Shown piece after piece: positions 7,223 to 63,163 of a stretch of DNA of 64,000 nucleotides. Location of the stretch: assembly GCA_041675505.1 (NCBI GenBank), contig JBAYTR010000005.1, positions 53,871-117,870 on the forward strand, given 5' to 3'. Source of the stretch: Bacteroidia bacterium. Lineage in GTDB: Bacteria > Bacteroidota > Bacteroidia > UKL13-3. The notes beneath the pieces were generated by a model. That model had not been told where the DNA came from, made no database searches, and saw only the letters and a list, made by a program, of their open reading frames with translations. A program made the position numbers and the translations under genes. The number at the start of each line of letters is the position of its first letter. Position 1 is the stretch's first letter.

Positions 7223-7319
7223 GGAGCAAAGATAAGCAGTATAGGTATTACATACTTAACAAGAGTAGGTGGATGTGAGAAATGAATCGAATTTCTGTTA
7301 TATTGCTTATCATTTTACT

Positions 7320-8279
7320 ATGAGAATTGCAGTAACCTTGATTTTTATTTCCTTTATCTCTGCTTTACAGGCGCAGGATTCTGTATATGTAAGCGGGAAG
7401 AAGCAGCCCTTGGTATGTTATGTAAGTCGCATAACTAAAAATATAGTTGTAGTAAAACCGGATACGTTACACAACAGTAAAGCAGATACACTTTCTACAG
7501 GGTACATTACTAAAGTAGTTTTAAAAGGAGGAGTGGAAGTCTTTTTCAAAAAGCCGGTTGCGTTTTATTCTAATGACACCTTAATGATCAGGTCCAATTC
7601 AAGCACACTGAAAATGGATGTTCCCTTTTGTATACCCAATAGACTATCCCTCTCTTTTGAAACGATGGCAGGTAAAGCCTCATCAATAGAAATAAGTGCA
7701 GGTTGGGTAAATACAAACCTAAGTATTATGAGAATAAATGACGATGATAATTACAGTGAAATCAAGAGCGATTACACCCATGGCTTTTATGGTACTATCG
7801 GATATAAAATACTGCTTTCGGCTATCAATAGAAGTCCGAGTCCTTCCTATTGGCACAAGCTCACGGGGGCTTATCTACGTCCTGAAATAAATTTTTCTAT
7901 GCTTAACATTACCCGGTACGGTGAATATGAAGAGGAACAAATTGTTTTTGGCCCAACCTGGGAAGACTATACCGAGAAATTCAAACAAAAAAGTATAGCA
8001 CTTTCCTTTAACTATGGCTATCAATCTGTCGAAAGAAATAGATTAGTCTTTGATATATATGTGGGGGCAGGAGTTTCCTGGGCATCTAATCAAATGATCA
8101 GCACAACGTTTCCACCACCGTTATTTGTAATTTCCCACAGGTATTTGAACAGGTCTCCGGTAGATATGTTTTCATACATCACGTTAAAGAATGCTGACAT
8201 TAGTCCGATGCTTCAATTTGGAGTTAAGTGTGGACTTGCATTAGGTAGGAAAAAGAGCATTTCAGTTAATTCGAGATAA
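7320..8279 (+). CDS. Secreted paralog 2 (same family as 5706..6581)
   Basis: Signal peptide 'MRIAVTLIFISFISALQAQD'. Conserved 'YVSRITKNIVVVKPDT' and 'VVLKGG' in the N-domain. The C-terminus is 'GVKCGLALGRKK'. Confidence 0.6.
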   Translation: MRIAVTLIFISFISALQAQDSVYVSGKKQPLVCYVSRITKNIVVVKPDTLHNSKADTLSTGYITKVVLKGGVEVFFKKPVAFYSNDTLMIRSNSSTLKMDVPFCIPNRLSLSFETMAGKASSIEISAGWVNTNLSIMRINDDDNYSEIKSDYTHGFYGTIGYKILLSAINRSPSPSYWHKLTGAYLRPEINFSMLNITRYGEYEEEQIVFGPTWEDYTEKFKQKSIALSFNYGYQSVERNRLVFDIYVGAGVSWASNQMISTTFPPPLFVISHRYLNRSPVDMFSYITLKNADISPMLQFGVKCGLALGRKKSISVNSR

Positions 8280-9227
8280 ATGGAAAGCCGTACATATATA
8301 AGAAACATATTTTTTCATTTGTTATGCCTTGCTTGCATGTTTTTCCCGCTGGCCTTATCAGCTCAGGATACCCTATATTATGACAGTGGCAAAAAACTGC
8401 CTGTAAAGGTGATATTAGTTAATCTGGATAAGGTTGTTTACAAAAAATGGCCTGTTGATACTCTTGCTCCTTTGTATAGTGTTCCTAGGTTTTACCTGAG
8501 GAGAATTTATTTTGAGAGCGGCACCATGCTGGTGAACACGTTTACCCGATATAAGCCTAATCAGGAAGGCAGACCGTTGAATAAAGCCGGCAGGTCTGCG
8601 AAAAACAGAACAATACTGAAAACGGATGTGATGTCATGGTTTTCCTACAGAGGGTCGTTTTCGATAGAAGAGCGTATAGTAGAAAAACTTAGCTTAGAGT
8701 TTACGTATGGACTTGCGGGTGGAGGCTTTGCGGAGTCATCTTTTAAAGAACAAGGAGTTAAAGGTGATTTTTATAAAGGTGGATTAAAATTCACGTTTTC
8801 AAGAAGACACCCGCAGGAAGGATTCTACATTAAACCGGAATATGTTTACCTGAACTACACACATTCCCAACAGGGGAGGTCAATATATATTGTTGAAAGA
8901 ATTTCAAGTAACATTCTGCGATTAGACGAGTTTTATTTTGTGGCCACTAATAGAGTAACAGGTAAGGCGGGTATCATCAACTTTGGTTGGCAGCAAATGC
9001 TTACACGTCATCTTGTTTGTGATTTGTATCTTGGAGTTGGTATCGGAAGAAAAGATAAAAAGTTGGAACCTATGGAGAAACCCTATAGAGACGCAGATGA
9101 GATTTTTTTCTCGTTAGAAGATCCCGACAAAGAATTGATGGAAAATAACATTGGTTTTATGTCAGAGTACATGAATAAAAGTTCTGCCGTTATGCAGGGC
9201 GGTATAAAAATTGGAATTATCTTTTAG
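8280..9227 (+). CDS. Secreted paralog 3. Its C-terminal '...GGIKIGIIF' is a typical OMP beta-barrel terminal-Phe signature
   Basis: Signal peptide plus 'AQDTLYYDSGKKLPVKVILVNLDKVVYKKWPV'. It starts at the base immediately after the paralog-2 stop. Confidence 0.6.
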   Translation: MESRTYIRNIFFHLLCLACMFFPLALSAQDTLYYDSGKKLPVKVILVNLDKVVYKKWPVDTLAPLYSVPRFYLRRIYFESGTMLVNTFTRYKPNQEGRPLNKAGRSAKNRTILKTDVMSWFSYRGSFSIEERIVEKLSLEFTYGLAGGGFAESSFKEQGVKGDFYKGGLKFTFSRRHPQEGFYIKPEYVYLNYTHSQQGRSIYIVERISSNILRLDEFYFVATNRVTGKAGIINFGWQQMLTRHLVCDLYLGVGIGRKDKKLEPMEKPYRDADEIFFSLEDPDKELMENNIGFMSEYMNKSSAVMQGGIKIGIIF

Positions 9228-9233
9228 TGAGGA

Positions 9234-10181
9234 ATGAAAAAGTCAATCTGTTTTTTTATTGGCTTAATGTTGTTTCTTTTTCACGCCAATGTCAATGCAC
9301 AAGATACGCTCGTATACAGGAGAACCGGGCAGGTTGTCTTGGTAAAAGTCATTGAAATCAGTCCGTCTTTCATTTATTATAAGATTTGGCCTGTTCATGA
9401 TTCAGCAGCAATACAATCAGTGAAAAAAATGCGCTTGCAAAGTGTGCGCTTGCTTAATGGAGAGCGGTTGATATTTGTTTCAGCAACCAAAGTGTCGCTA
9501 GAAGCATTTACAGAACAACGAAGAATATTGATTAAAACAGAGCCAATGTTAAGCATGAGGAAATCAAGTTCTTTGTGGCTTGAATACGCATTTCATCCCA
9601 AGGTGGCTGCACAGGTAGGTTATGGGATGATTGGAACAGGTTGGGCTGCACTACAAACGGGTACTGAGAAGTTGCAAGGAAATGAATGGTCTGCCGGAGT
9701 AAAGTTTTATTTGCTGAATGTGGCATTTATGTCTCCTGAAAAGAGAAAGTTGCTTCAAGGGTTTTATCTGGCACCTGAATTCAATATGATTTCATACACG
9801 AGTCAGGCTGATTTCAAATGGCAGGTTGATACCAACGGAGTAATGGCTGCTGAAGGGGTTAGTAGCACTATCTACCAATCAAAAGGTTGGAACCTGAGTT
9901 GCTTGTTTGGTTACCAAAGGATATTTGATTTCGGTTTGTCACTTGAAGTAAATATATCAGCCGGAATAGGGAAACGAACAGAGGTAATTATTAAGGACGG
10001 GATGAATGATATTCCGCACATTCCGCTTCCCAACGGTGGATACAGAGGTTTATACAACATACCACTCAATGATGATTTTGTTGATTATGGCTATAGTGCT
10101 CCGGAGAGGGGTGTTGGCCTTACATTGCATTCCAGACTAAAAGTGGGATATCTTATTGGGCCAAGATGGAAGAAGAAGTAA
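9234..10181 (+). CDS. Secreted paralog 4
   Basis: Signal peptide plus 'AQDTLVYRRTGQVVLVKVIEISPSFIYYKIWPV'. The C-terminus is 'LKVGYLIGPRWKKK'. Confidence 0.6.
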   Translation: MKKSICFFIGLMLFLFHANVNAQDTLVYRRTGQVVLVKVIEISPSFIYYKIWPVHDSAAIQSVKKMRLQSVRLLNGERLIFVSATKVSLEAFTEQRRILIKTEPMLSMRKSSSLWLEYAFHPKVAAQVGYGMIGTGWAALQTGTEKLQGNEWSAGVKFYLLNVAFMSPEKRKLLQGFYLAPEFNMISYTSQADFKWQVDTNGVMAAEGVSSTIYQSKGWNLSCLFGYQRIFDFGLSLEVNISAGIGKRTEVIIKDGMNDIPHIPLPNGGYRGLYNIPLNDDFVDYGYSAPERGVGLTLHSRLKVGYLIGPRWKKK

Positions 10182-30358: not shown

Positions 30359-30786
30359 AATTTCTAATGGTTAATAGTGTAAATATTTTGAATGTAATGT
30401 CTGAAGGTAAGATATACGATTTGGAGGAACGCACTTTCATATTTGCTAAAAGAGTTAGAGACTTTGTTCGATTATTGCCATTAACGATTTCCAACAAAGA
30501 AGATATTCGTCAGTTAATTAGATCATCAGGCTCAATCGGTGCAAATTATATAGAGGCTAATGAGAACCTAGGAGAAAAAGATAAAAAGATGCGCATACGT
30601 ATTTCAAGAAAGGAAGCTAAGGAGACTAGATACTGGCTTAATTTAATTGAAACGAAAGATGTTAAGGAACTTGAGGAAGAAAGAAGAAGATTGGCCACTG
30701 AGGCTGAAGAATTGATGCTAATATTTGGGACTATAATTAAACGTTTAAATTAACAATTCGAGATTCGGAATTAACAATTAGAAATT
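30359..30786 (+). mobile_element. Mini-insertion carrying a 'four-helix-bundle protein' gene, bounded by 17-bp imperfect inverted repeats. Left repeat 'aatttctaatggttaat' at 30359-30375; right repeat 'attaacaattagaaatt' at 30770-30786
   Basis: The two repeat arms agree at 16 of 17 positions when one is reverse-complemented. The element expands the pntAB-pntB junction, which is normally a few bp, to about 450 bp. Confidence 0.5.
30397..30753 (+). CDS. Four-helix-bundle protein (TIGR02436-like, '23S rRNA intervening-sequence protein' family)
   Basis: The 118-aa protein has 'YDLEERTFIFAKRVRDF', 'IRQLIRSSGSIGANYIEANE' and 'KDKKMRIRISRKEAKETRYWLNL', which are family hallmarks. Confidence 0.8.
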   Translation: MSEGKIYDLEERTFIFAKRVRDFVRLLPLTISNKEDIRQLIRSSGSIGANYIEANENLGEKDKKMRIRISRKEAKETRYWLNLIETKDVKELEEERRRLATEAEELMLIFGTIIKRLN

Positions 30787-53106: not shown

Positions 53107-53754
53107 ATGCAAGACAACCGCAGTACTCAACTGATGTTTCGCGAGGCGTTACATCTCTACCACCAGGAGCAATTTACCCGTGCTTTTCAGCAACTGGAAA
53201 TTATACTGGCCCTACAGCCCGCCCACATGCCGGCTAAATACCAACAGGCTTTGTGCAAAATACATTTAGGGCAGGAGGAAGAGGCTTACCATGATTTATT
53301 GCAACTGGTGGAGCAGGATCCGGATCATCATCAGGCACTGTCGCAACTGGCGCAGGTATGCTTTAGTCTGGGTGATAAAACCATGGCACTGGTGCATATT
53401 CACCGGGCACTGGAAAGTGATTGCGATGAAATTAACAGAGCCGAGTACTACTTTATCGCTACCAACTTTTACAGCCTGAGCGGTGAAACGGAAATGGCGC
53501 TGGAGTTTGTGGAACAAGCCATTCAACTGCAACCTTCCAATCAGGAGTACCTGATTAAACGGGCACGTTTGTTTATTAAGCAGCACCAATATGCCTATGC
53601 CTTAAGCTGCCTCAACCAATTGCTCATACAAATGCCTTTTTGCCGCGATGCTTATTTCTTGCGTGCCCTGTGCCGCAAGCAGCTCAACGACAATACGGGT
53701 GCTCACCTGGACATGGAACGTTTTCGTTCCAACCGCTGTGAGTTACCTTCTTAA
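53107..53754 (+). CDS. TPR-repeat protein
   Basis: Several 34-aa repeats with the 'A..Y..AL' pattern. Confidence 0.6.
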   Translation: MQDNRSTQLMFREALHLYHQEQFTRAFQQLEIILALQPAHMPAKYQQALCKIHLGQEEEAYHDLLQLVEQDPDHHQALSQLAQVCFSLGDKTMALVHIHRALESDCDEINRAEYYFIATNFYSLSGETEMALEFVEQAIQLQPSNQEYLIKRARLFIKQHQYAYALSCLNQLLIQMPFCRDAYFLRALCRKQLNDNTGAHLDMERFRSNRCELPS

Positions 53755-53897
53755 ATTGAAATTTTAGCTTAGCAAATAAAAGATTCTGCCGGGGCCAAGT
53801 GTTTGGGTGAACACGTCCCGTGCAGTTTTTTTGTTTTGGAGGTGGAAGCGTTGGTTGGCGGGGGACGCCAACTACGGACAATTACGAATTCTGTGTT

Positions 53898-54356
53898 TTA
53901 CTTCTTATTTAACGTAGACGTATCCGGATTAAAAAGTACCACCCATTTGTTGTCAACAAACTCAACAAAAAATCCAAATCCTTTGTAATAGTTTTTATCG
54001 TATTTGAACCAGGCTTTGATGTTGTAGGTGCCAAAATCACGTGACATCTTTTCGGCTTCTACACTGTAAATTTCTATGTAGTCAATTTTCAGGTTACGGT
54101 TCAAAGCGGTGTCTAAAAACTCCTGTAAGTGATAGAAGTTGTCTTTTATATCTTGCTCAGTAAATGGTCTGTCGTGATAGGGCCACTTGTACTTGCCGGT
54201 ATGCCATAGGCCGATAAAGGATGCACTGTCAGAACTTTTTAAATGTGTTATGGCTTTTTCCAGTAGCAGCCGGGCTTCTTTCTTAGATATTTTTTGCCCG
54301 AATAAAGTTGTGGACAAGCTCAGGCAAATAATGGCGAGTAGTAGTGCTTTTTTCAT
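53898..54356 (-). CDS. Hypothetical secreted protein (AT-rich islet)
   Basis: Signal peptide 'MKKALLLAIICLSLSTTLFGQ'. The start is set by homology of its 5' leader to the next gene's leader. Confidence 0.5.
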   Translation of the reverse strand: MKKALLLAIICLSLSTTLFGQKISKKEARLLLEKAITHLKSSDSASFIGLWHTGKYKWPYHDRPFTEQDIKDNFYHLQEFLDTALNRNLKIDYIEIYSVEAEKMSRDFGTYNIKAWFKYDKNYYKGFGFFVEFVDNKWVVLFNPDTSTLNKK

Positions 54357-54440
54357 TGTACTAAAATACAAAAAGAGAGCGGTTTCAAAGAGTGTTTCAA
54401 TTTTTTCCTATTAGGTTGGTCAGTGCTGACACGGACCAAA
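54357..54440 (-). repeat. Copy A of a duplicated 5' leader/hairpin module: 'tgtactaaaatacaaaaagagag.ggttt...gtttcaatttttt' plus the hairpin 'ttggtcagtgctgacacggaccaa'
   Basis: Aligns with 55213..55345. Confidence 0.6.
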
Positions 54441-54465
54441 GCAGTACTCATAGTGTGTGTGCCTT

Positions 54466-55212
54466 CTAATGCGGTGGTAGAACATCCCAAAAAACTAAAT
54501 TCGGTTTGCACTTCTTAATCTTTTGAATAGTTGGGTAAATACTCATTCGACTCAAATAAAGTTCTTTGTTTTTTATTTTTGAATCAATAATATTGAATTG
54601 ATGAATGTCGCTCAATTTACAAACATCACATTTAATCTCTGTTATTTGTTTGGTCTCGAATGTGAAACTTTGAAGCTTACTTAGTGTCTCTATCCATTGT
54701 GGTATAACCTGCGATTTTCCTCTATAGCCTAAAAAAGTTAAGCCCAAAAAGGCTGAATCAAATTGGGGAAACGTCAAATTTGGCGCAAACAAGTATAAAA
54801 AGTTCAAGCTGTCACTTACGTTAATCAAGTTGATTCTATCCACCTTGTATCCTCCAAAGATTCCAATTGATTGAAGGTTTTCAAATTTGGCCAAATCTAG
54901 ATTGGTCACAGGCTGATTTAAATTGTCAATCCGAATGCTGATAATTTTATTCAGGTCAATATGTAGTGACAATGCTTCGAAATCAATTGGCTTTGTTGAA
55001 TTAATTACCAACTGACTTATATCTTTTGATTTAATTGAATCTGGTATCTCTGAGATATCGCAATTTGTTAGGTATAGAGCATGATATTTCTCTTTATATA
55101 CAACGCAACTATTCTTGCTTGGAATGTCTTTTTTTGTTGTATTGTCACAAGAAGAGACAATTAACAGAATAAGAACTATGCATAAGGAATTAAAAGTACA
55201 TCTTACTTTCAT
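54466..55212 (-). CDS. Leucine-rich-repeat-like lipoprotein
   Basis: Lipobox 'IVSSC'. Repeated 'L..L.L..N.I' segments. Confidence 0.5.
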   Translation of the reverse strand: MKVRCTFNSLCIVLILLIVSSCDNTTKKDIPSKNSCVVYKEKYHALYLTNCDISEIPDSIKSKDISQLVINSTKPIDFEALSLHIDLNKIISIRIDNLNQPVTNLDLAKFENLQSIGIFGGYKVDRINLINVSDSLNFLYLFAPNLTFPQFDSAFLGLTFLGYRGKSQVIPQWIETLSKLQSFTFETKQITEIKCDVCKLSDIHQFNIIDSKIKNKELYLSRMSIYPTIQKIKKCKPNLVFWDVLPPH

Positions 55213-55345
55213 TGTACTAAAATAGAAAAAAAAGAGAGGTTTTATGAGGCTGTTTCAATTTTTATTTTCTAAATCAATCTTTTCTTGTGCTCAACTTTGG
55301 TTCTTGCAAGCATTGGGGCTTTCGGTTGGTTCGTGTAACACGAAC
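55213..55345 (-). repeat. Copy B of the duplicated leader/hairpin module. Contains a perfect 10-bp palindrome 'ttggttcgtg taa cacgaaccaa'
   Basis: Read directly in the sequence. Confidence 0.6.
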
Positions 55346-55442
55346 CAAAGCGGGGTAATTTGATGTAATTTAACTTTTTTGCCACTTTCGTTTGTTAGTG
55401 CTGTCACAAACAAAAGAAAACGGTGAGTGGATATGTGTTATT

Positions 55443-56168
55443 TCAATAAAGTAAGTCTGCACCGTTTTCTTTTAAGGTATCAATTAATCCTTTTACACCT
55501 TGTTTGATGATTTCTTTTTTAGATTCACTTAAAAATTCCTTTATGAACTTTGTTCCTTGTTTTGCAATTTTCGCCCAAATACTTGTCAACTTTGTGACAA
55601 CCCACTTTTTTGATTTATTAGTAATATGGTCACGAAGGACTATAATGTCTTGCTTTATTTCCTTAATGTCTTTTGTGTTATTTTCAGTTTCAAATTCAGA
55701 TAATCTATTCCCTATCGCTTCCAAGTATTTGTCTAATAGTAAAATCTGATTAGTTTTCAATGGCTTTGATTCTGCTTCTTCGTCTATTATTTCAAATTCA
55801 GCGTAAAACTCTTCTTTAAATGACTTTGTTATTGGGTCATCAAAAAAAGAATTTACGCTTTCGTATTCATTTAATAAATTTGACCAAGCTTCAAATTGCC
55901 CTTTCAAACTTGTTACTTCAACCCAAGTTTGATAACTTCCGCTATCATTAATGTTTCGTGGACACTTTGTTATTAAGAATTGAAATATGTTACTGTTAGT
56001 TTTTTGATAATCTTCGATAGTAAAATGAAACTTTGAATCTAAATCTTTATCAATTATCTTAAGTAAATTTTCTTTTGGCTCAATAACTTCAAATTTGTCA
56101 CCTTTTAAATTGACGAAAGGCTCCAATGCTTTCAAAATTACTAATGGTAAGTCCTTTTTCTTTCTCAT
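55443..56168 (-). CDS. Hypothetical cytoplasmic protein (241 aa, AT-rich, orphan)
   Basis: ORF only. Its K/E-rich composition is unlike the flanking core genes. Confidence 0.45.
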   Translation of the reverse strand: MRKKKDLPLVILKALEPFVNLKGDKFEVIEPKENLLKIIDKDLDSKFHFTIEDYQKTNSNIFQFLITKCPRNINDSGSYQTWVEVTSLKGQFEAWSNLLNEYESVNSFFDDPITKSFKEEFYAEFEIIDEEAESKPLKTNQILLLDKYLEAIGNRLSEFETENNTKDIKEIKQDIIVLRDHITNKSKKWVVTKLTSIWAKIAKQGTKFIKEFLSESKKEIIKQGVKGLIDTLKENGADLLY

Positions 56169-56414
56169 GCTTATTGATGGTTTGTCGTTTTATATGCTTG
56201 GAATTTATATAGACGCCATTCTTAGTTCTTTTGAAAATATTGATTAGATTTCGCAGCCATACCAGATAAATTTTAGGTAAAACTAATCGCATGTATGCAG
56301 AAAAACAAATGTAGAAGATAAGTTCAACTTCGCTATAGCTCCTGTCCCCACGAGCCACTAAAGAAAAATCCGTGGAATCTGTGCAATCAGTGTCGCACTC
56401 CTCTTGTGCAGGAG

Positions 56415-57704
56415 CTATTTCTTTTTCTTCCCCGGTATCTTGTTCAAATCCTCGTGCAGGTCTTTGATGGAGCCAAAGCCAATCACATCTTTCAGCACCG
56501 GGTCTTTGGATAACTCAGCGGCCCGTATAATTTTTTCTGTACCAAAGCGGCCCTTAATGCCGTACACGGTTTTGCGTAATTTGTCTTTGCGGCTGTGGTC
56601 GTCAAACAGGGAATACTGCACCTGTGTATCGGGTACAAAATCACTTACCGTTACGCCCAAAGCTGCCAGTTGGTTGTTGATGATGGGTTGTGTTTGGTGC
56701 TCCTTTTCAAAAGCCTCCATTTTTTGTTTTACTAAGTGCAACAAATCAATGCCGTCCTGCAAGGGTTGGGAGAGAGGGATGCCTGTTCCCCACTCGTAGC
56801 CGTCAATGTAGCGGCAGTAGAGCGATATGTTACGGCAAAATACGCCTTGCTTTACCATGCGCCCTTCCAGTTTGAGGCAAAGGGATAACAACAACTCTTG
56901 CAAGGTTTCCAATTTTTCGCGCTGGTGTTTGGAAATCATGCGTTGCGCGGCCATGCTCTTGTAATCGTGGGTTTCGGTATCTATGGTTACTTCCTGAAAG
57001 TTGAGGCGCTGGTGCCAGTACAAACCCACCACACTGCGGCAAGCCGCTTTAAGTTTTTGCGGAGAGGTATACCGCAGTTCCAGCGGAGTGCGAATGCCTG
57101 CATGCTCCAGTCGCGTGGCCATGCCACGGGCAATGCCGGGCAGATCGGTTAGTTTCATGTTTTTCAGAATACCGTCAATGGTATCGGGCATAATGGTGGT
57201 AAGGCCATCGGGCTTTTTCACATTGGAAGCCAGCTTGGCTAAAAAGGCATTGGGGGCAATGCCAATGGAACAGGTAAGGTAATCGCCCACTTCATTTTTA
57301 ATATCTTTTTTTATTTGTTTGGCCAGCTCTTTCGGGTCTTTGTAAATAAGGTGGTAGCCCGTAAGGTCAATCACGGCTTCATCAATACTTTTGGGAATTA
57401 CCTTATCCGAGTACTTGCGCAACACGTTCATGATTTTGATGTGTATTTCGCGGTACAGGTTAGGATGTGTTTCCACCGCTACAATATCGGGGCACACTTT
57501 TAAAGCCTCGTTCATGCGCATACCACCTTTTACTCCTTTTTTCTTAGCATCAACGGAAGCGGCAATAATGGCGGCAAAACGGTTGAGGTACACACATACG
57601 CCCACAGGTTTTCCGCGCAGTTCAGGGTTTACCTGTTGCTCGCAGGTAGCAAAAAAACTGTTCATGTCCACAAACAGAAAACAAGATTCGGGTGCGCGTT
57701 GCAT
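56415..57704 (-). CDS. dinB: DNA polymerase IV (Y-family)
   Basis: 'FLFVDMNSFFATCEQ', 'KPVGV' and 'SIDEAVIDLTG' are Y-family palm motifs. It has a long C-terminal little-finger domain. Confidence 0.85.
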   Translation of the reverse strand: MQRAPESCFLFVDMNSFFATCEQQVNPELRGKPVGVCVYLNRFAAIIAASVDAKKKGVKGGMRMNEALKVCPDIVAVETHPNLYREIHIKIMNVLRKYSDKVIPKSIDEAVIDLTGYHLIYKDPKELAKQIKKDIKNEVGDYLTCSIGIAPNAFLAKLASNVKKPDGLTTIMPDTIDGILKNMKLTDLPGIARGMATRLEHAGIRTPLELRYTSPQKLKAACRSVVGLYWHQRLNFQEVTIDTETHDYKSMAAQRMISKHQREKLETLQELLLSLCLKLEGRMVKQGVFCRNISLYCRYIDGYEWGTGIPLSQPLQDGIDLLHLVKQKMEAFEKEHQTQPIINNQLAALGVTVSDFVPDTQVQYSLFDDHSRKDKLRKTVYGIKGRFGTEKIIRAAELSKDPVLKDVIGFGSIKDLHEDLNKIPGKKKK

Positions 57705-58171: not shown

Positions 58172-60154
58172 ATGCTGAACGAAAAATACACATGCGACTC
58201 ATTTCAACTCAGGTTACTATTAACCTTACTGAGTGTTGCCTGTGCTGTGTTCCATACCTCAGCACAAACTGATTCCTCCAAACACATACCTGAGGTGACC
58301 ATTACAGCCGTGCGCGGGGAACAGTTGCAAACAGGTGCCAAGGTGCAACAATTTACTCCCGCACAGTTACGTGCATTTGCCACAGCTAACCTGGGCGAAC
58401 TACTTTCAGCCAACACTCCGGTGTTTATTAAAAGTTACGGACCGGGTAGTTTAAGTAGCATTTCTTTTCGGGGTACAGGAGCCTCGCATACCGCAATTGT
58501 GTGGAACGGGTTTAACCTGCAAAGTTCCATGAACGGGCAAACTGATTTGTCCATGTTTCCCATAGGCACCTTTGATGAGGTGAGGTTGCAGTATGGCGGC
58601 AACAGTGCTTTGTACGGAAGTGGTGCAATTGGTGGCAGCATTTATTTGCGCAACACAGCTGCCTTGGTTGATTCACCACAGATGCACTTGGTCTTGCAAG
58701 CCTCTTCGGGAAGCTTTGGTACACAGCAATATTTTGGCAGCTACGGTTATTCAGGCAAAAGGTTTAGTACACAAGTGAAATATTACCGCAATAACTCAGA
58801 TAATAATTATTCTTTTACCAATACCGCAGCTTTTCAATCTCCTGACGTAAAACAAACACATGCGGCCTTTACCCAACAAGGTGTAGTGTTGAATGTCGGT
58901 GGGAGCGTGTCTAAATATACCCGCATCAATGCGTATTACTGGTGGCATAACAACCAACGCGATTTGCCGCCTACTATGTTGCAAAGCACTTCATTGGCTA
59001 CACAAGCGGATGAATCACACCGGGCAGCGATTGATTTTACTTATGGTCGTAACAAATGGCAAAGCATTTTACGCAGCGGATTTTTTCTGGAACAACTTCG
59101 CTACAGCGACCCGATTGCTGGTATTGACAGTAAAAATCGTGCAGTCAATTGGGTGAATGAGTTGGAGCTTTCTTATACCGTTTCACCGATTCTGAAAGTG
59201 ATATCGGGGGTAAACTTTACCACCATCAATGCATCTTCACCCGGCTATTCATCAACTGCTTCTCCTTCCCAAAACAGAACAGCCATTTTCGCAGCTGCCA
59301 GATGGGGGAAGCAAACAGCAGCCTCGCGTTTTAAATCAGACATCTCGGCACGTGCTGAAAATATTTCGGGAGTTTGGGTGCCCGTTACCTTCAGCTTCGG
59401 AACGCAGACAAGGGTAGCTAATAATTTGCACTTTCATACTTTGGTATCACGCAATTACCGTTACCCAACGTTCAATGATTTGTACTGGCAACCCGGTGGC
59501 AATTTACAACTGAAACCGGAGTACAGCTTTAATGCGGAAAGCGGATTGAACTATGTATACACTTTATCAAAGCATCAGTTCAAAGCTAACGTAACGGTGT
59601 TCAGTCATTGGGTTGATAACTGGATTATCTGGATGCCTGATTCCGTTAACCCCAACGTGTGGACTCCCAACAACGCAGCCGAAGTGTGGAGCAGGGGAGT
59701 AGAGTATGGTTTGGGTTATACCTGGCAGCCGAAGTTAAACACAGCTATTTCGGTAAACGCGTTGTATACGTGGCAGCAAGCCACACACGAGAAGGTGGCC
59801 TTTGCAGGAGATGCTGCTTTGCACCGTCAGTTAATTTATATGCCGAGACAAATGGGCTCGTTGCAACTGAGTGTGCAACACAAAAAGTGTCAATTCAGTT
59901 TTCAGCAAGTGTATAACGGTTTGCGTTTTACCAGCAGCGACAATTACAATTACCTGCCAGCATTCTGGTTAAGCAGTGCTCAGCTGTCCTACACCTTTCA
60001 ATTGAAAAAATATCCTGCCTCGGCCCGTGCGTTTGTTTCGGCAAAAAATATGTGGAATGAAAATTACCAGGTGATGTTGTGGCGAGCCATGCCGGGGCGC
60101 TACATAGAAGCAGGTTTACGATTGGAATTACAACATAAAATTAAACATCAATAA
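58172..60154 (+). CDS. btuB: TonB-dependent receptor, probable corrinoid transporter BtuB
   Basis: Signal peptide and plug domain ('VTITAVRGEQL', 'SISFRG'). The C-terminal barrel ends '...RLELQHKIKHQ'. The preceding cobalamin riboswitch supports the BtuB assignment. Confidence 0.75.
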   Translation: MLNEKYTCDSFQLRLLLTLLSVACAVFHTSAQTDSSKHIPEVTITAVRGEQLQTGAKVQQFTPAQLRAFATANLGELLSANTPVFIKSYGPGSLSSISFRGTGASHTAIVWNGFNLQSSMNGQTDLSMFPIGTFDEVRLQYGGNSALYGSGAIGGSIYLRNTAALVDSPQMHLVLQASSGSFGTQQYFGSYGYSGKRFSTQVKYYRNNSDNNYSFTNTAAFQSPDVKQTHAAFTQQGVVLNVGGSVSKYTRINAYYWWHNNQRDLPPTMLQSTSLATQADESHRAAIDFTYGRNKWQSILRSGFFLEQLRYSDPIAGIDSKNRAVNWVNELELSYTVSPILKVISGVNFTTINASSPGYSSTASPSQNRTAIFAAARWGKQTAASRFKSDISARAENISGVWVPVTFSFGTQTRVANNLHFHTLVSRNYRYPTFNDLYWQPGGNLQLKPEYSFNAESGLNYVYTLSKHQFKANVTVFSHWVDNWIIWMPDSVNPNVWTPNNAAEVWSRGVEYGLGYTWQPKLNTAISVNALYTWQQATHEKVAFAGDAALHRQLIYMPRQMGSLQLSVQHKKCQFSFQQVYNGLRFTSSDNYNYLPAFWLSSAQLSYTFQLKKYPASARAFVSAKNMWNENYQVMLWRAMPGRYIEAGLRLELQHKIKHQ

Positions 60155-60156
60155 TC

Positions 60157-61128
60157 ATGAGAAAAACAACTTTACTATTTTTATTCGCTATTCTTTCTGC
60201 GGCAGTTTCTGCTCAAACAGTTGCCAATTTTGAAAATATCACCTTACCTGTCGACAGCTTTTGGGATGGCCGATATGACCAGCAGGCCAAAGGTTTCAGC
60301 AGCGGTAATGCCTTTTTTACCAACATGTGGGATACCTCTTTCGGTGGTTTTTGGGCAGATGGTTTTGCCTGCAGCAATAAAAAAGATACCATCAATGGAA
60401 CCTATACCAATAAGTATTCAGCCATTACTGCCGGTGGCTACAACGCCTCAGCCAACTTTGTTATCGGTCAGCAAAACGCCATAGTGCGTTTAACAGGAAA
60501 CGGAGCAGGTAAAGTAGTGGAAGGTTTTTATGTAACCAACGGAACTTATCCTTACAGCACCATAAAAAACGGAGACAGTTTTTCGAAGAAATTCGGTGGT
60601 GTTACCGGTACTGACCCTGACTTCTTTTTACTGCATGTAGTGGGTTGGCACAACGGTACATTAAAGAACGATACCGTTAAATTTTATCTGGCAGATTTCC
60701 GCTCAACAGACAGCAGCGCTGATTATATCGTAAAAGACTGGCGTTGGGTTAACCTTACTTCACTGGGTAATGTGGATAGCATTAAACTATTTATGACTTC
60801 TTCTGATGTGGGCCAGTGGGGAATTAACACCCCGTTGTTTTACGCCATAGATAATTTTACCACACGCGATATTGCCGCAAGTGTTGCTCCAGTGAAAACC
60901 AACCTTGTTGCTGCGTATCCTAATCCGTTCACTACACAAGTTAGTGTTGCCGTTGAGGTAGCTTCATCTATAGTGCTGTTAGATATCAATGGGAGAGTAG
61001 TATTAAATGAAACCATTTCTGACGCAGGGAAAATCACGTTAAATACCGCTGAAATTGCCGCAGGAATTTACTTTATTCGTGTAAGCAATGTTTACGGACA
61101 AAGCACACAAAAATTAATCAGGTACTAA
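60157..61128 (+). CDS. DUF4465-like (BtuH-like?) protein with a T9SS C-terminal sorting domain
   Basis: The N-terminus 'AQTVANFENITLPVDSFWDG' resembles DUF4465 starts as I recall them. The C-terminal 'AYPNPFTTQVSV...GIYFIRVSNVYGQ' is a type-A T9SS CTD. Confidence 0.5.
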   Translation: MRKTTLLFLFAILSAAVSAQTVANFENITLPVDSFWDGRYDQQAKGFSSGNAFFTNMWDTSFGGFWADGFACSNKKDTINGTYTNKYSAITAGGYNASANFVIGQQNAIVRLTGNGAGKVVEGFYVTNGTYPYSTIKNGDSFSKKFGGVTGTDPDFFLLHVVGWHNGTLKNDTVKFYLADFRSTDSSADYIVKDWRWVNLTSLGNVDSIKLFMTSSDVGQWGINTPLFYAIDNFTTRDIAASVAPVKTNLVAAYPNPFTTQVSVAVEVASSIVLLDINGRVVLNETISDAGKITLNTAEIAAGIYFIRVSNVYGQSTQKLIRY

Positions 61129-62132
61129 TGCGTTTTTACAGTCTGTTTTTTATACTTCTGTTGAGCCTTGGCGGAGCAAATGCACAATTTGCTCCGCAGG
61201 TTGGCAGGCCCGGTTCTACCGCCATTCACAAGGACAATGTGTTGTTTGTGAACTGGGCACAAACCTGCACCGTTAATCGCGGTTACCAGCATGCAGGTAA
61301 TCCGTCTTTGGGTTATCCTACCGTGGGCGATTCGTCTATGGCCGTTGGCAAAGCGGGCACTAACGGAGTGGTGAGTCTGGGAGATGGTGGAAATGCAGTG
61401 CTCACTTTTTATCCTGCTATTAAAAACAAAGCCGGATATGATTTCGCAATTTTCGAAAACGGTTTTCAGTTTATTGCTGATTCAGGTTTGGCGTTTTTGG
61501 AATTTGCTTTTGTAGAAGTGAGTTCAGATGGTCAGTACTTTGTTCGTTTCCCCGCAATAAGTAATATAGATACAAGCGTTCAATGTGACCCTTACGGCAT
61601 CAGCGATGCAGCCAAAGTAGATCAACTGGCCGGTAAGTACGTGTTTCCTTACGGCACCCCGTTTGACTTAGAACTATTGAAAGACACACCGGGTTTAGAT
61701 GTTAACCGCATCACACACATTCGTTTAGTAGATGTGGTGGGCAGTATTGATGCACCCTATGCGCAGCGTGATTCACGCGGAATTATAGTGAATGATCCCT
61801 GGCCCACTGATTTTCCCAACTGTGGTTTTGATGTGGATGCGATAGGAGTGATTAACCAGAACGATCCTAACACTGTGGAGGAAACACTTCAACAGGCACT
61901 TGTTTTATACCCTAATCCTTCTGCAACTCATGCTGCGGTGCGATTACATTTGCCCATGTGGAATATGCCTGCACAGGTAAAAGTCTATGACATCAACGGA
62001 AAAATGGTATTGACCCAACAACTCAACCATGCGGGTGATTACCTCCAAGCTGCTGCATTACCCAAAGGAATATTTTTGGTAGAAGTCGAACAGCAAGGTA
62101 TCACTTACCGCTGCAAATGGATGATTCAATGA
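61128..62132 (+). CDS. Secreted protein of unknown function with a T9SS CTD, in the B12 operon
   Basis: Signal peptide. The C-terminal 'LYPNPSATHAAV...GIFLVEVEQQGITY' is a T9SS CTD. Confidence 0.5.
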   Translation: MRFYSLFFILLLSLGGANAQFAPQVGRPGSTAIHKDNVLFVNWAQTCTVNRGYQHAGNPSLGYPTVGDSSMAVGKAGTNGVVSLGDGGNAVLTFYPAIKNKAGYDFAIFENGFQFIADSGLAFLEFAFVEVSSDGQYFVRFPAISNIDTSVQCDPYGISDAAKVDQLAGKYVFPYGTPFDLELLKDTPGLDVNRITHIRLVDVVGSIDAPYAQRDSRGIIVNDPWPTDFPNCGFDVDAIGVINQNDPNTVEETLQQALVLYPNPSATHAAVRLHLPMWNMPAQVKVYDINGKMVLTQQLNHAGDYLQAAALPKGIFLVEVEQQGITYRCKWMIQ

Positions 62133-63163
62133 GTTCATTTCGTCTGTTGTTTTTGCTTTCAGTTGCACTAACGGTATTTGCCTGTAAAGAAGAAATTCCG
62201 CAAGCACCTGAATTGCCTTCAGCACAAAGTAACCGTTTGGTGTACGTAATTAACGAGGGGAATTTTCAGTGGGGCAATGCTACCATCACCCGCTTTGATC
62301 GCATCAGCAAACAAAAAACGCACGATGATTTTTTTGAAAGTGCCAACCAACGCCCTTTGGGTGATGTGGCACAATCCATCACCTTTCACAACGGATTGGG
62401 GTATCTCGTCATCAATAATTCCTCTAAAATTGAAGTAGTAGATTCCACCACGTTTGTTACCAAAGGTGTCATCAGCGGATTGACTTCACCGCGTTACCTG
62501 TTACCTGTGGGAGGCAATAAAGCCTATGTAACCGATATTTATTCCAACTGCATTTGGGTGGTGAATCTGAATACGCGTACACTCATTAAAACCATTCCTT
62601 GTCGCGGGTGGACGGAAGAGTTGCTTTTGCACAATGGCAAAGTATGGGTTACCAACCTGCGCACCAATTACCTCTATCGCATCAATCCGGTTACAGATAT
62701 TATGGAAGATAGTGTGTTGCTCGGCTTTCCCGCAGGTTCTTTAGTAACGGATGCCGGCAATAAATTGTGGGTATTGTGCAGTCAGGTTTTGCAAGCCAAT
62801 GCGCCTTCCCGTTTGATGCAACTCAACGCACAAGGTACGCAGGTACTCAAAATATTTGATTTGGGCACGGGAGCAGGAAAGGTGTTGCGCACCAACCCCG
62901 ACCGCACGCAGCTCTACTGGATAAAGGGCCACATTTACAGCATGCACATCACTGCTGATTCACTTCCTGTTGCTCCTTTAATAACCAAACAGTCGGGTGA
63001 AAATTTTTACAGTTTAGGAATAGATCCTGTGAGCGGAGAGATTTATGCAGGCGATGCACTCGATTATGTGCAGAAGGGAAACGTGAAATGTTTCACTCCT
63101 GCAGGAGCATTCATCACCTCATTTAAAGCGGGTATCACACCGGGAAATTTTGCATTTAATTAA
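62117..63163 (+). CDS. Beta-propeller (YncE/YVTN-like) surface lipoprotein, a candidate BtuG-like B12-binding protein
   Basis: Lipobox 'LTVFAC'. Repeated 'YV.N.G' blade motifs ('LVYVINEGNF', 'KAYVTDIYSN', 'KVWVTNLRTN'). It overlaps the upstream gene by 16 nt. Confidence 0.5.
   Translation: MDDSMSSFRLLFLLSVALTVFACKEEIPQAPELPSAQSNRLVYVINEGNFQWGNATITRFDRISKQKTHDDFFESANQRPLGDVAQSITFHNGLGYLVINNSSKIEVVDSTTFVTKGVISGLTSPRYLLPVGGNKAYVTDIYSNCIWVVNLNTRTLIKTIPCRGWTEELLLHNGKVWVTNLRTNYLYRINPVTDIMEDSVLLGFPAGSLVTDAGNKLWVLCSQVLQANAPSRLMQLNAQGTQVLKIFDLGTGAGKVLRTNPDRTQLYWIKGHIYSMHITADSLPVAPLITKQSGENFYSLGIDPVSGEIYAGDALDYVQKGNVKCFTPAGAFITSFKAGITPGNFAFN

Follow-up and report, generated by a model that had tools for sequence, protein, structure and literature searches.

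The segment between dinB and a gene for a TPR protein was analyzed in a 64,000-nt stretch of the Bacteroidia contig JBAYTR010000005.1 (assembly GCA_041675505.1); this whole stretch is called the window here. The dinB-TPR gap is a hypervariable hotspot, in which one open reading frame (ORF A) is resident and two others (ORFs B and C) are cargo. Its genes are separated by repeated intergenic modules composed of a hairpin element and, in a longer form, a spacer and a leader. The gap is read here not as three orphan genes, as had been proposed in an earlier note on the same DNA, but as a cassette-like hotspot of gene exchange, whose modules would punctuate both recombination and expression; a probability of roughly 0.6 is assigned to this reading. 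The content of the slot varies between strains, its cargo is AT-rich, an element following the stop codons is confined to it, and the breakpoints between strains lie at module edges.

A Strain-Variable Slot Between Conserved Flanks

Related loci (denoted by L and a number) were reached in two ways, via a homologue of ORF A with 93% identity (L008) and via a CcmD protein of 74 aa without differences between strains, which led to ten syntenic loci; 118 index blocks contain this protein. The flanks on the dinB side and on the TPR side are 90-96% identical among the related contigs, and the DinB protein is 100% identical to that of the contig JAGPCK010000023.1, a Bacteroidia metagenome-assembled genome (MAG). 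A scan of genome contigs with dinB gave just the source species and a 3-kb fragment from the wrong side. In blastn comparisons with L008, L001, L029, L030, L033, L034, and L035, the left flank is common down to about 56324-56338 and the right flank is common from 53836/53847. The sequence conserved in these relatives sets the edges of the slot, a strain-variable segment of ~2.5 kb.

At least seven different gene sets are found between dinB and the TPR gene among the related contigs. Read in this direction, the content is C-B-A in the window, L003, and L031, 71-aa lipoprotein-B-A in L034, 264-A in L029, 75(-)/85(-)-A in L035, 198-A-238 in L008, and ...232-194-A-227 in L030 and L033. In L001, L028, L032, and L037 it is HTH-truncated C5 methyltransferase-96-156(-)-HTH-A, together with a tandem duplication of 146 bp of the right flank; in relatives, the slot holds a decayed type II methyltransferase/HTH module. 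The cargo proteins are mutually unrelated. Their genes show 25-37% GC (most of them 25-35%), with the 71-aa ORF of L034 (39%) as an exception, while the flanks have about 47%. ORF A is present in all 8 related configurations with 90-97% amino-acid identity and has 37-40% GC there. With the same flanking genes, differing content, and deviant composition, the locus is a chromosomal integration hotspot. Two further independent assemblies (Logan SRR6484325 and ENA ERZ27247358) contain the C-B-A arrangement with 100% identity, so that it is not an assembly artefact. No tRNA gene that could serve as an insertion site was found within the window.

The earlier note had described three same-strand ORFs with markedly lower GC than their neighbours. 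All three are indeed located on the minus strand, with matching coordinates, and the low GC applies without reservation to ORF C (29.1%; 25% at third codon positions, GC3) and ORF B (32.1%; GC3 32%), which are the two lowest of the 52 ORFs in the window (mean 42.3%, standard deviation 3.2). For ORF A the description holds in part: its 38.1% GC lies below that of the immediate neighbours (48%), yet just 1.3 standard deviations below the window mean, with a normal GC3 (45.8%). In 400-nt windows, GC drops to 29-36% in the islet versus about 42-48% in the flanks, and none of the other 63 1-kb bins is as low as 55001-56000 (30.8%). ORF A is considered resident because it occurs in every configuration and shows a normal GC3. 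The modular acquisition proposed earlier consequently survives for an accessory, modular block in which B and C are compositionally foreign, and fails for ORF A. Conservation of the block in all relatives with typical codon usage and an insignificant leader similarity, which would have spoken against the earlier note, is not what the strains show: gene content differs, and the leader alignment (see below) is significant.

Two observations on the slots of relatives may be added. The 146-bp duplication (L001 12757-13090, equal to L028 2191-2523; JAGPCK010000023.1) has a unit that spans the last TPR codons, a bidirectional terminator, and the GTTGGCGTCCCCCGCCAAC hairpin, and it looks like the product of unequal or single-crossover recombination. 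The 264-aa cargo protein of L029 (990-1784) starts with ...IVLFLDILGF..., reminiscent of the metal-binding motif of class III nucleotidyl cyclases; it gave no Pfam, PADLOC, or PDB sequence match.

A Repeated Module of Hairpin Element, Spacer, and Leader

The hairpin element comprises ~43 nt with the consensus nnCCCnGCTTTGGTTCGTGTCA(n)CACnAACCAACCnAAAG, also written CCnGCTTTGGTTCGTGTCA..CACGAACCAACCGAAAG. Behind nearly all cargo genes, it begins 0-22 nt past the stop codon, and it likewise follows ORF A in L001, L008, and L030. The lineage harbors 14 copies, three of them in the window, in the same orientation and following co-oriented ORFs. A covariance model of the element (R1) was searched against 319 kb. 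Besides the 64-kb window, this space comprised about 250 kb from elsewhere, namely ~20 kb surrounding the slot in seven relatives and the regions in which the remote homologues lie. All copies are located inside the dinB-TPR gap, and none was detected elsewhere in this search space. The palindromes noticed earlier upstream of each leader are present and homologous (cores at 54416-54439 and 55326-55348), and GCTTTGGTYCGTG occurs without mismatch at these two sites alone. In the alignment of the 14 copies, 80% of the stem cells are paired, compared with 22-44% in slid controls, and both sides have changed in 4 of 10 pairs; the covariation score is 0.169 (0.101 in shuffles), a value that 4 of 500 shuffles attained. 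Conservation is highest in the outer arms TTGGT/ACCAA. The degenerate copy el1 shows 75% identity to a stretch of L030 that comprises the element and the spacer following ORF A.

An optional spacer of ~55 nt contains (C)AATGAACCAAAGTTGAGCACAAGAACAGATTGATTCAGAAAAT, with GAACCWAAG being complementary to the 5' arm of the element. It is conserved in L008 (twice), L001/L028, L034, and L035, and a compensatory change is seen between CTTTGGTTC/GAACCAAAG in the window and CTTAGGTTC/GAACCTAAG in L008 (T/A versus A/T). In its long form, the module consists of the element, the spacer, and the leader of ORF A ending at the ATG.

The leader (~50 nt), of the form AAAAATTGAAMCA-N8-22-CTCTCTTTTTnTATTTTAGTACA, extends directly to the start codon. 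The near-identity of the leaders preceding A and B, a further claim of the earlier note, is borne out by a local alignment of 52 columns with a score of 54 (z = 16.6; 2000 shuffles gave a mean of 16.1, a standard deviation of 2.3, and a maximum of 30). In the search for further leader copies, the blocks AAAAATTGAAACA and TATTTTAGTACAATG were each found exactly twice in the 64 kb, both at the islet. Among the relatives, the leader precedes ORF A throughout, and otherwise just ORF B (window and L034). Since it stands before A in every strain and elsewhere before B alone, the leader is ORF A's own 5' region, copied once; the notion of a reused leader cassette as a general feature is thus abandoned. 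Compared with the ORF A leaders, the middle of the B leader agrees better with the L030 allele than with the allele of the window, which suggests that it arrived together with B from an ORF A-type allele of another strain.

Consensus -7 promoter elements of Bacteroidetes read TAnnTTTG. The leader carries TATTTTAG, one mismatch from this consensus, at a distance of 4 nt from the ATG; positions -1, -3, and -6 of the start context are occupied by A. L001 and L029, whose leader alleles are short, have a TTG 19-20 nt farther upstream, which matches the expected -33 spacing. A sigma-70 promoter scan yielded fewer promoter-like sites than shuffles and none at the modules.

Neither leader nor hairpin is present near the remote homologues of ORFs A and B (L009, L011, L040, L041), scans of viral contigs for the leader and for the hairpin found none, and an Rfam scan of 53600-56600 gave no match at E <= 1. 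Weak reverse-strand R1 matches (16-20 bits, E 0.07-0.8) occur at 56326-56367, at the same site in five genomes (window, L034, L029, L001, L035); this match 3' of dinB may be an inverted, degenerate copy of the element bounding the slot. The simple pattern TTGGT-N8-16-ACCAA is found 8 times in the window versus about 1.4-1.7 expected, and the six copies outside the islet are all situated within coding regions (10331, 11874, 13534, 17675, 25151, 29190). The palindrome was also considered as an operator of the neighbouring WYL regulator; this was rejected, as the divergent promoter region between the WYL gene and the 143-aa gene contains no similar palindrome.

Breakpoints at Module Edges and Possible Routes of Exchange

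The main argument for the modules as sites of exchange is that inter-strain breakpoints coincide with module edges. Homology between L034 and the window covers 56480-56237 and then 55353-53700, and the second segment starts exactly at the 5' edge of the hairpin element el2, so that the ORF C unit (the ORF with its own degenerate element) stands in place of a small lipoprotein ORF. Homology resumes at 54447 in L029 and at 54441 in L030, corresponding to the 5' edge of the hairpin between B and A. In L008, L033, and L035 it resumes at 54405, the first base of leader box 1.

It is supposed that genes enter and leave the slot by recombination at the modules. B and C would have been acquired horizontally, C from a family that travels elsewhere as a passenger of integron cassettes and defence islands. 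A possible route is homologous exchange between the arrays of related strains, with the repeats serving as portable homology; alternatively, a recombinase encoded elsewhere may act on the modules. On the level of expression, the hairpin would mark the 3' end of one transcript, and the leader would provide the next gene with a promoter-like -7 box and an A-rich start context.

Alternative Explanations

Several results weigh against the modules as active exchange and expression sites. The inner stem of the element is often unpaired or broken, and several copies no longer fold (e.g. the L008 Y-end, -2.1 kcal/mol, z +0.4), so that many of them may be decaying relics. The left boundary is not fixed to one nucleotide, as it varies by ~60 nt towards dinB in L035 and by a few nt in L029/L008, which speaks against a single precise site. 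No recombinase or transposase was detected in the Pfam annotation of ~36-64 kb or in 20 further ORFs in 1-36 kb, which were scanned for tyrosine recombinases and Y1 transposases. An exact-pattern scan of metagenomes with AACCWAAGTTGAGCAMAAG returned 15 loci, all of them chance matches without extended similarity, and hence no second locus. The spacing of the leader boxes ranges from 8 to 22 nt; just the short alleles suit a Bacteroidetes -33/-7 promoter and the window alleles do not, and the promoter assignment is therefore tentative. A scan with a terminator consensus lists none of the junction hairpins, which are followed by CCGAAAG or CCTAATAGG. As they have no T-run, in contrast to clear terminators of the organism (e.g. 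AAGCGTAGG..CCTACGCTTTTCTTTT in L030), they are not canonical terminators.

In one alternative explanation, the slot is an ordinary hotspot with passive repeats. Its turnover would proceed by homologous recombination in the dinB and TPR flanks after DNA uptake, together with illegitimate insertions and deletions; the hairpins would be stabilizers or terminators at RNA 3' ends and the leader copy a local duplication, neither of them recombining. The flanks, 92-96% identical, are long enough for homologous exchange, and the 146-bp duplication in L001/L028 resembles the product of a homologous or unequal crossover. The imprecise left boundaries, the decay of some element copies, and the lack of a recombinase among the ORFs checked nearby point in the same direction. 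Against it stand at least 13 unrelated cargo genes of foreign composition with the same lineage-specific element after their stop codons, hard to explain without a link to their arrival, as well as the internal breakpoints at module edges and the missing T-run of the hairpins. We consider this explanation unlikely, though it has to be taken seriously. Rather less credence is given to the proposal that the locus represents a previously undescribed gene-cassette system of Bacteroidia that is not based on attC, with the ~43-nt element as both the site for a recombinase acting in trans and an expression adaptor. Each captured gene would then be insulated from its neighbour, and the long form would add a promoter and a start context; such a system would be functionally analogous to an integron and built from different parts.

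In a true attC site, pairing between two inverse core sites, R'' (RYYYAAC) and R' (GTTRRRY), closes an imperfect hairpin with a length of about 55-141 nt. A complete integron requires the tyrosine recombinase IntI adjacent to the array, which is absent by definition in clusters of attC sites lacking an integrase (CALIN). In a degenerate integron of the latter kind, hairpin plus spacer would be a non-canonical attC with the integrase elsewhere and the crossover at the GTTRRRY-like GTTGAGC. The compact co-oriented ORFs, each followed by an imperfect palindrome in the same orientation, agree with this. So do the long module of 57-66 nt, whose end AAAG|TTGAGC fits GTTRRRY, a long-range stem of 9-13 bp with the compensatory change between the window and L008, a GTTGAAC at the left boundary in the window and L034, and the occurrence of ORF C homologues as bona fide cassettes beside canonical attC sites. 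However, an R'' box pairing with R' is missing (the 5' end is CCCCGC or CCCAGC), and the fold has no closing R''/R' stem as is present in the true attC sites of L043. Inter-strain homology starts at least 13 nt upstream of G|TT and not there, which counts against a single precise site under the preferred reading as well. Moreover, the R'-like box is found in long modules alone, the short ones having no GTTGAGC, the ORFs tested include no integrase, and AAGTTGARC is not enriched in the window (3 found versus 1.7 expected). A degenerate integron is thus improbable.

Slightly more improbable still is a rAID-1-like array of orphan immunity genes directed against interbacterial toxins. The co-directional genes of 29-38% GC, the repetitive intergenic sequences, and the three proteins devoid of enzymatic motifs, one secreted, one a lipoprotein, and one cytoplasmic, would suit such an array. 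Its defining 5' XerD-like recombinase is missing, however, with dinB in that position; there is no match to the Pfam immunity families or the other libraries searched, and ORF A, which the lineage conserves and passes on vertically, occupies housekeeping contexts in distant relatives. Finally, the hairpins might be ends of non-autonomous single-strand transposable elements (IS200/IS605- or REP/RAYT-like) mobilized by a Y1 transposase in trans. Similar hairpins in direct orientation on one strand do flank the cargo genes, and, relative to the hairpin foot, breakpoints are found a few nt away on the 5' side and about 11-17 nt away on the 3' side. Since the ORFs scanned include no Y1 transposase, the 319 kb no other copies of the element, and the boundaries no evident conserved target tetranucleotide, we regard this as very improbable.

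Resident and Cargo Proteins

ORF A has 22 homologues; in distant Bacteroidia, these are placed in unrelated housekeeping contexts and have no leader. Its AlphaFold2 model (predicted local distance difference test, pLDDT, 86.6) was compared with the PDB using Foldseek, and the top 50 matches are mostly NTF2-like (NTF2, ketosteroid isomerase, AtzH, RsgI9 NTF2; E 6e-3, probability up to 1.0). On the sequence level, the similarity is weak, with a profile match to a de novo NTF2 at E 0.009. ORF A is a predicted secreted protein, and its model has an NTF2-like fold. In one distant Bacteroidia MAG (L011, 8560-8640), a tRNA-gene-like sequence lies on the opposite strand after the ORF A homologue.

The designation as orphan genes holds for ORF B, which is rare, and not for A or for C, a member of a large family. 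For ORF B, two remote homologues and one orthologue with 94% identity in L034 are found. It gave no Pfam leucine-rich repeat (LRR) match at E <= 0.1 and weak phmmer matches to the Leptospira proteins 4u08 (E 0.058) and 4u09 (E 0.43), both of which we take to be LRR proteins. ORF B may thus be described as an AT-rich cargo gene for a predicted lipoprotein that is weakly LRR-like.

ORF C is present among the relatives just in the window, L003, and L031. It has 192 word-indexed matches with 52-77% identity over the full length, in Flavobacterium, Winogradskyella, Myroides, Paludibacter, Roseivirga, Mesonia, and Pedobacter, and its family comprises at least 667 cluster representatives at E <= 1e-3. 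A Pfam search with 138 aligned family members matched no family. In the AlphaFold2 model (pLDDT 90.5), an alpha/beta domain containing five strands forms the N-terminal part and a helical bundle the C-terminal part; it matched no PDB fold specifically. No catalytic motif is suggested by the conserved residues W95, FDDP (109-112), and IWAK (198-201). In L043, the ORF C homologue is part of a long co-oriented array, in which each gene is followed by a repeat of ~135 nt, GCTAACAC...CCACCGTTAGC, whose fold (z = -5.2) has the R''/R' stem that closes an attC site. Two Flavobacterium genomes harbor ORF C homologues in similar arrays with GCTAACA...GTTAGC repeats and GNAT genes (L004, L006, L007). Further homologues reside in an AbiC/GmrSD/serine-recombinase island of a Paludibacter MAG (L038) and in a PIN/SNF2-PLD/HNH island (L039); a tblastn search against plasmids and phages found none. 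ORF C thus recurs as a passenger in integron cassettes and defence islands, and its very low GC is in line with an origin in a Bacteroidota donor of low GC. Being large, without a Pfam model, and confidently predicted in its fold, the family could reasonably be included in functional screens.

The stretch fetched for L043 is 1-20726 of ERZ21873832 ctg9787c (6.16 Mb); L006/L007 belong to Flavobacterium sp. U410 and L004 to Flavobacterium sp. PL002. In these arrays, repeats of about 130-170 nt follow each gene, and the cargo includes GNATs, KAP NTPase, DUF3800, DUF4272, and Mrr/M78. They resemble sedentary integron arrays in Bacteroidota-type genomes, and no integrase was found inside the stretches fetched. 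In the window, a perfect 14-bp inverted repeat, AAAAGAAAACGGTG / CACCGTTTTCTTTT (55412-55425 / 55460-55473, 34-nt loop), straddles the stop codon of ORF C; its left arm provides the codons for the C-terminal residues KENG.

The earlier statement that no known defence domain is recognizable in A, B, and C was confirmed: none of the three has a match at E <= 0.1 in Pfam (including the Imm families), PADLOC, or NCBIfam, or a usable one in PHROGs. A surface or defence-like function may nevertheless be indicated by the predicted export of A and B, the decayed methyltransferase in the slot of relatives, and the ORF C homologues in defence islands. Our best guess, made with low confidence, is that the slot proteins are niche- or conflict-related accessory proteins of an immunity- or defence-like kind.

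Layout of the Locus and Its Surroundings

ORFs A, B, and C are co-directional with dinB, follow it downstream, and converge on the TPR gene. The features of the slot and its anchors are compiled in Table 1.

Table 1. Features of the dinB-TPR slot and its borders (window coordinates).
Feature	Position	Strand	Remarks
TPR protein gene, conserved right anchor	53107-53754	+	convergent with ORF A; Pfam TPR families; present in all relatives
Slot	53837-56326		~2.5 kb, strain-variable
Right-end hairpin	53854-53872	-	GTTGGCGTCCCCCGCCAAC; kept in most relatives; tandemly duplicated with 146 bp of flank in L001/L028
ORF A	53898-54356	-	152 aa from ATG; N-terminal signal peptide
Leader of ORF A	54357-54405	-	box 1 AAAAATTGAAACA, box 2 CTCTCTTTTTGTATTTTAGTACA; abuts ATG
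Hairpin element, B-to-A junction	54406-54448	-	R1 49.8 bits; DNA fold -7.4 kcal/mol; begins 18 nt past the ORF B stop
ORF B	54466-55212	-	248 aa; predicted lipoprotein, lipobox LIVSSC
Second leader copy, before ORF B	55213-55263	-	middle part CTCATAAAACC
Spacer of the long junction module	55264-55315	-	contains GAACCAAAGTTGAGCACAAGAA, complementary to the 5' arm of the hairpin element
Hairpin element el2	55316-55357	-	perfect 10-bp stem TTGGTTCGTG/CACGAACCAA; R1 48 bits; fold z = -3.5
Degenerate hairpin element el1	55381-55423	-	3' end of the ORF C unit; R1 35.4 bits
ORF C	55443-56168	-	241 aa; cytoplasmic
Upstream region of ORF C	56169-56326	-	no leader; distal ~90 nt (56237-56326) common to window and L034
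Conserved left flank, 3' of the dinB stop codon	56327-56414	-	imperfect inverted repeat, not kept in L008
dinB, conserved left anchor	56415-57704	-	Y-family polymerase; Pfam IMS and IMS_C; present in L008, L034, L035, and L001

According to Pfam, a WYL-WCX regulator is encoded further beyond the TPR gene. Upstream of dinB (58172-63163), a TonB-dependent receptor (Plug), two Por_Secre_tail proteins (cargo of the type IX secretion system), one of them with DUF4465, and a DUF5074 protein form a cluster that is kept in all relatives. Another compositional outlier of the window is a 128-aa gene with 33% GC at 30367-30753, a member of the 23S rRNA-intervening-sequence/Avd-like four-helix-bundle family (PF05635). 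Three successive same-strand ORFs at 7269-10181 (336, 315, and 315 aa), which gave no Pfam match at 1e-5, may be paralogues.

Comparison with Known Systems

The locus displays cassette-like turnover at a very small scale, with more than 13 unrelated AT-rich genes passing via one 2-kb slot in strains about 5% diverged. If the repeat is an exchange site, a compact system would be at hand for studying accessory-gene capture and expression wiring in an uncultured lineage; if the repeats are passive, the locus is a well-documented micro-hotspot. Interest would rise considerably if the element proved to be the recombination site of an as yet unidentified recombinase.

With integration and defence hotspots, the slot shares conserved anchors and strain-specific, compositionally foreign content, including the decayed methyltransferase module. 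It differs from them by its very small size, by the lack of a detectable integrase, tRNA, or mobile backbone, and by a slot-specific junction repeat on unrelated cargo. Repetitive extragenic palindromic sequences and bacterial interspersed mosaic elements (REP/BIME) are likewise imperfect palindromes of ~35-43 nt located just past stop codons, and the hairpin covariation is modest; the slot element, however, is not dispersed, all copies in the 319 kb residing within one gap.

Integrons are rare in Bacteroidota. To our knowledge, rAID-1 is the one described integron-like system of this phylum, defined by its recombinase. In the report by Ross et al. (10.1101/471110), rAID-1 appears as low-GC arrays of small co-directional genes in Bacteroidales, with intergenic repeats 'reminiscent of integrons'; the criteria given there are a 5' XerD-like recombinase, at least two co-directional downstream genes with GC <= 41%, and homology to immunity families. 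The slot belongs to the same phylum, and its three co-directional genes (38.1, 32.1, and 29.1% GC) lie below the 41% limit stated there. It differs in having neither a 5' XerD-like recombinase nor detectable immunity homology and in stemming from environmental uncultured Bacteroidia instead of gut Bacteroidales.

The slot departs from integrons and CALINs in that its array is tiny (2-5 genes) and embedded between core genes, ORF A is fixed, and one module carries a promoter-like leader. Because its repeat has no R'' box and no R''/R' closing stem, and because no IntI was found nearby in the window ORFs tested, the locus is not filed as an integron. Integrons and CALINs are nevertheless the mechanistically closest systems: they share with the slot compact, co-oriented, AT-rich, and mostly unannotated ORFs, palindromes in the same orientation after the ORFs, at least two such repeats following co-oriented ORFs (three in the window), and a content that differs between close relatives.

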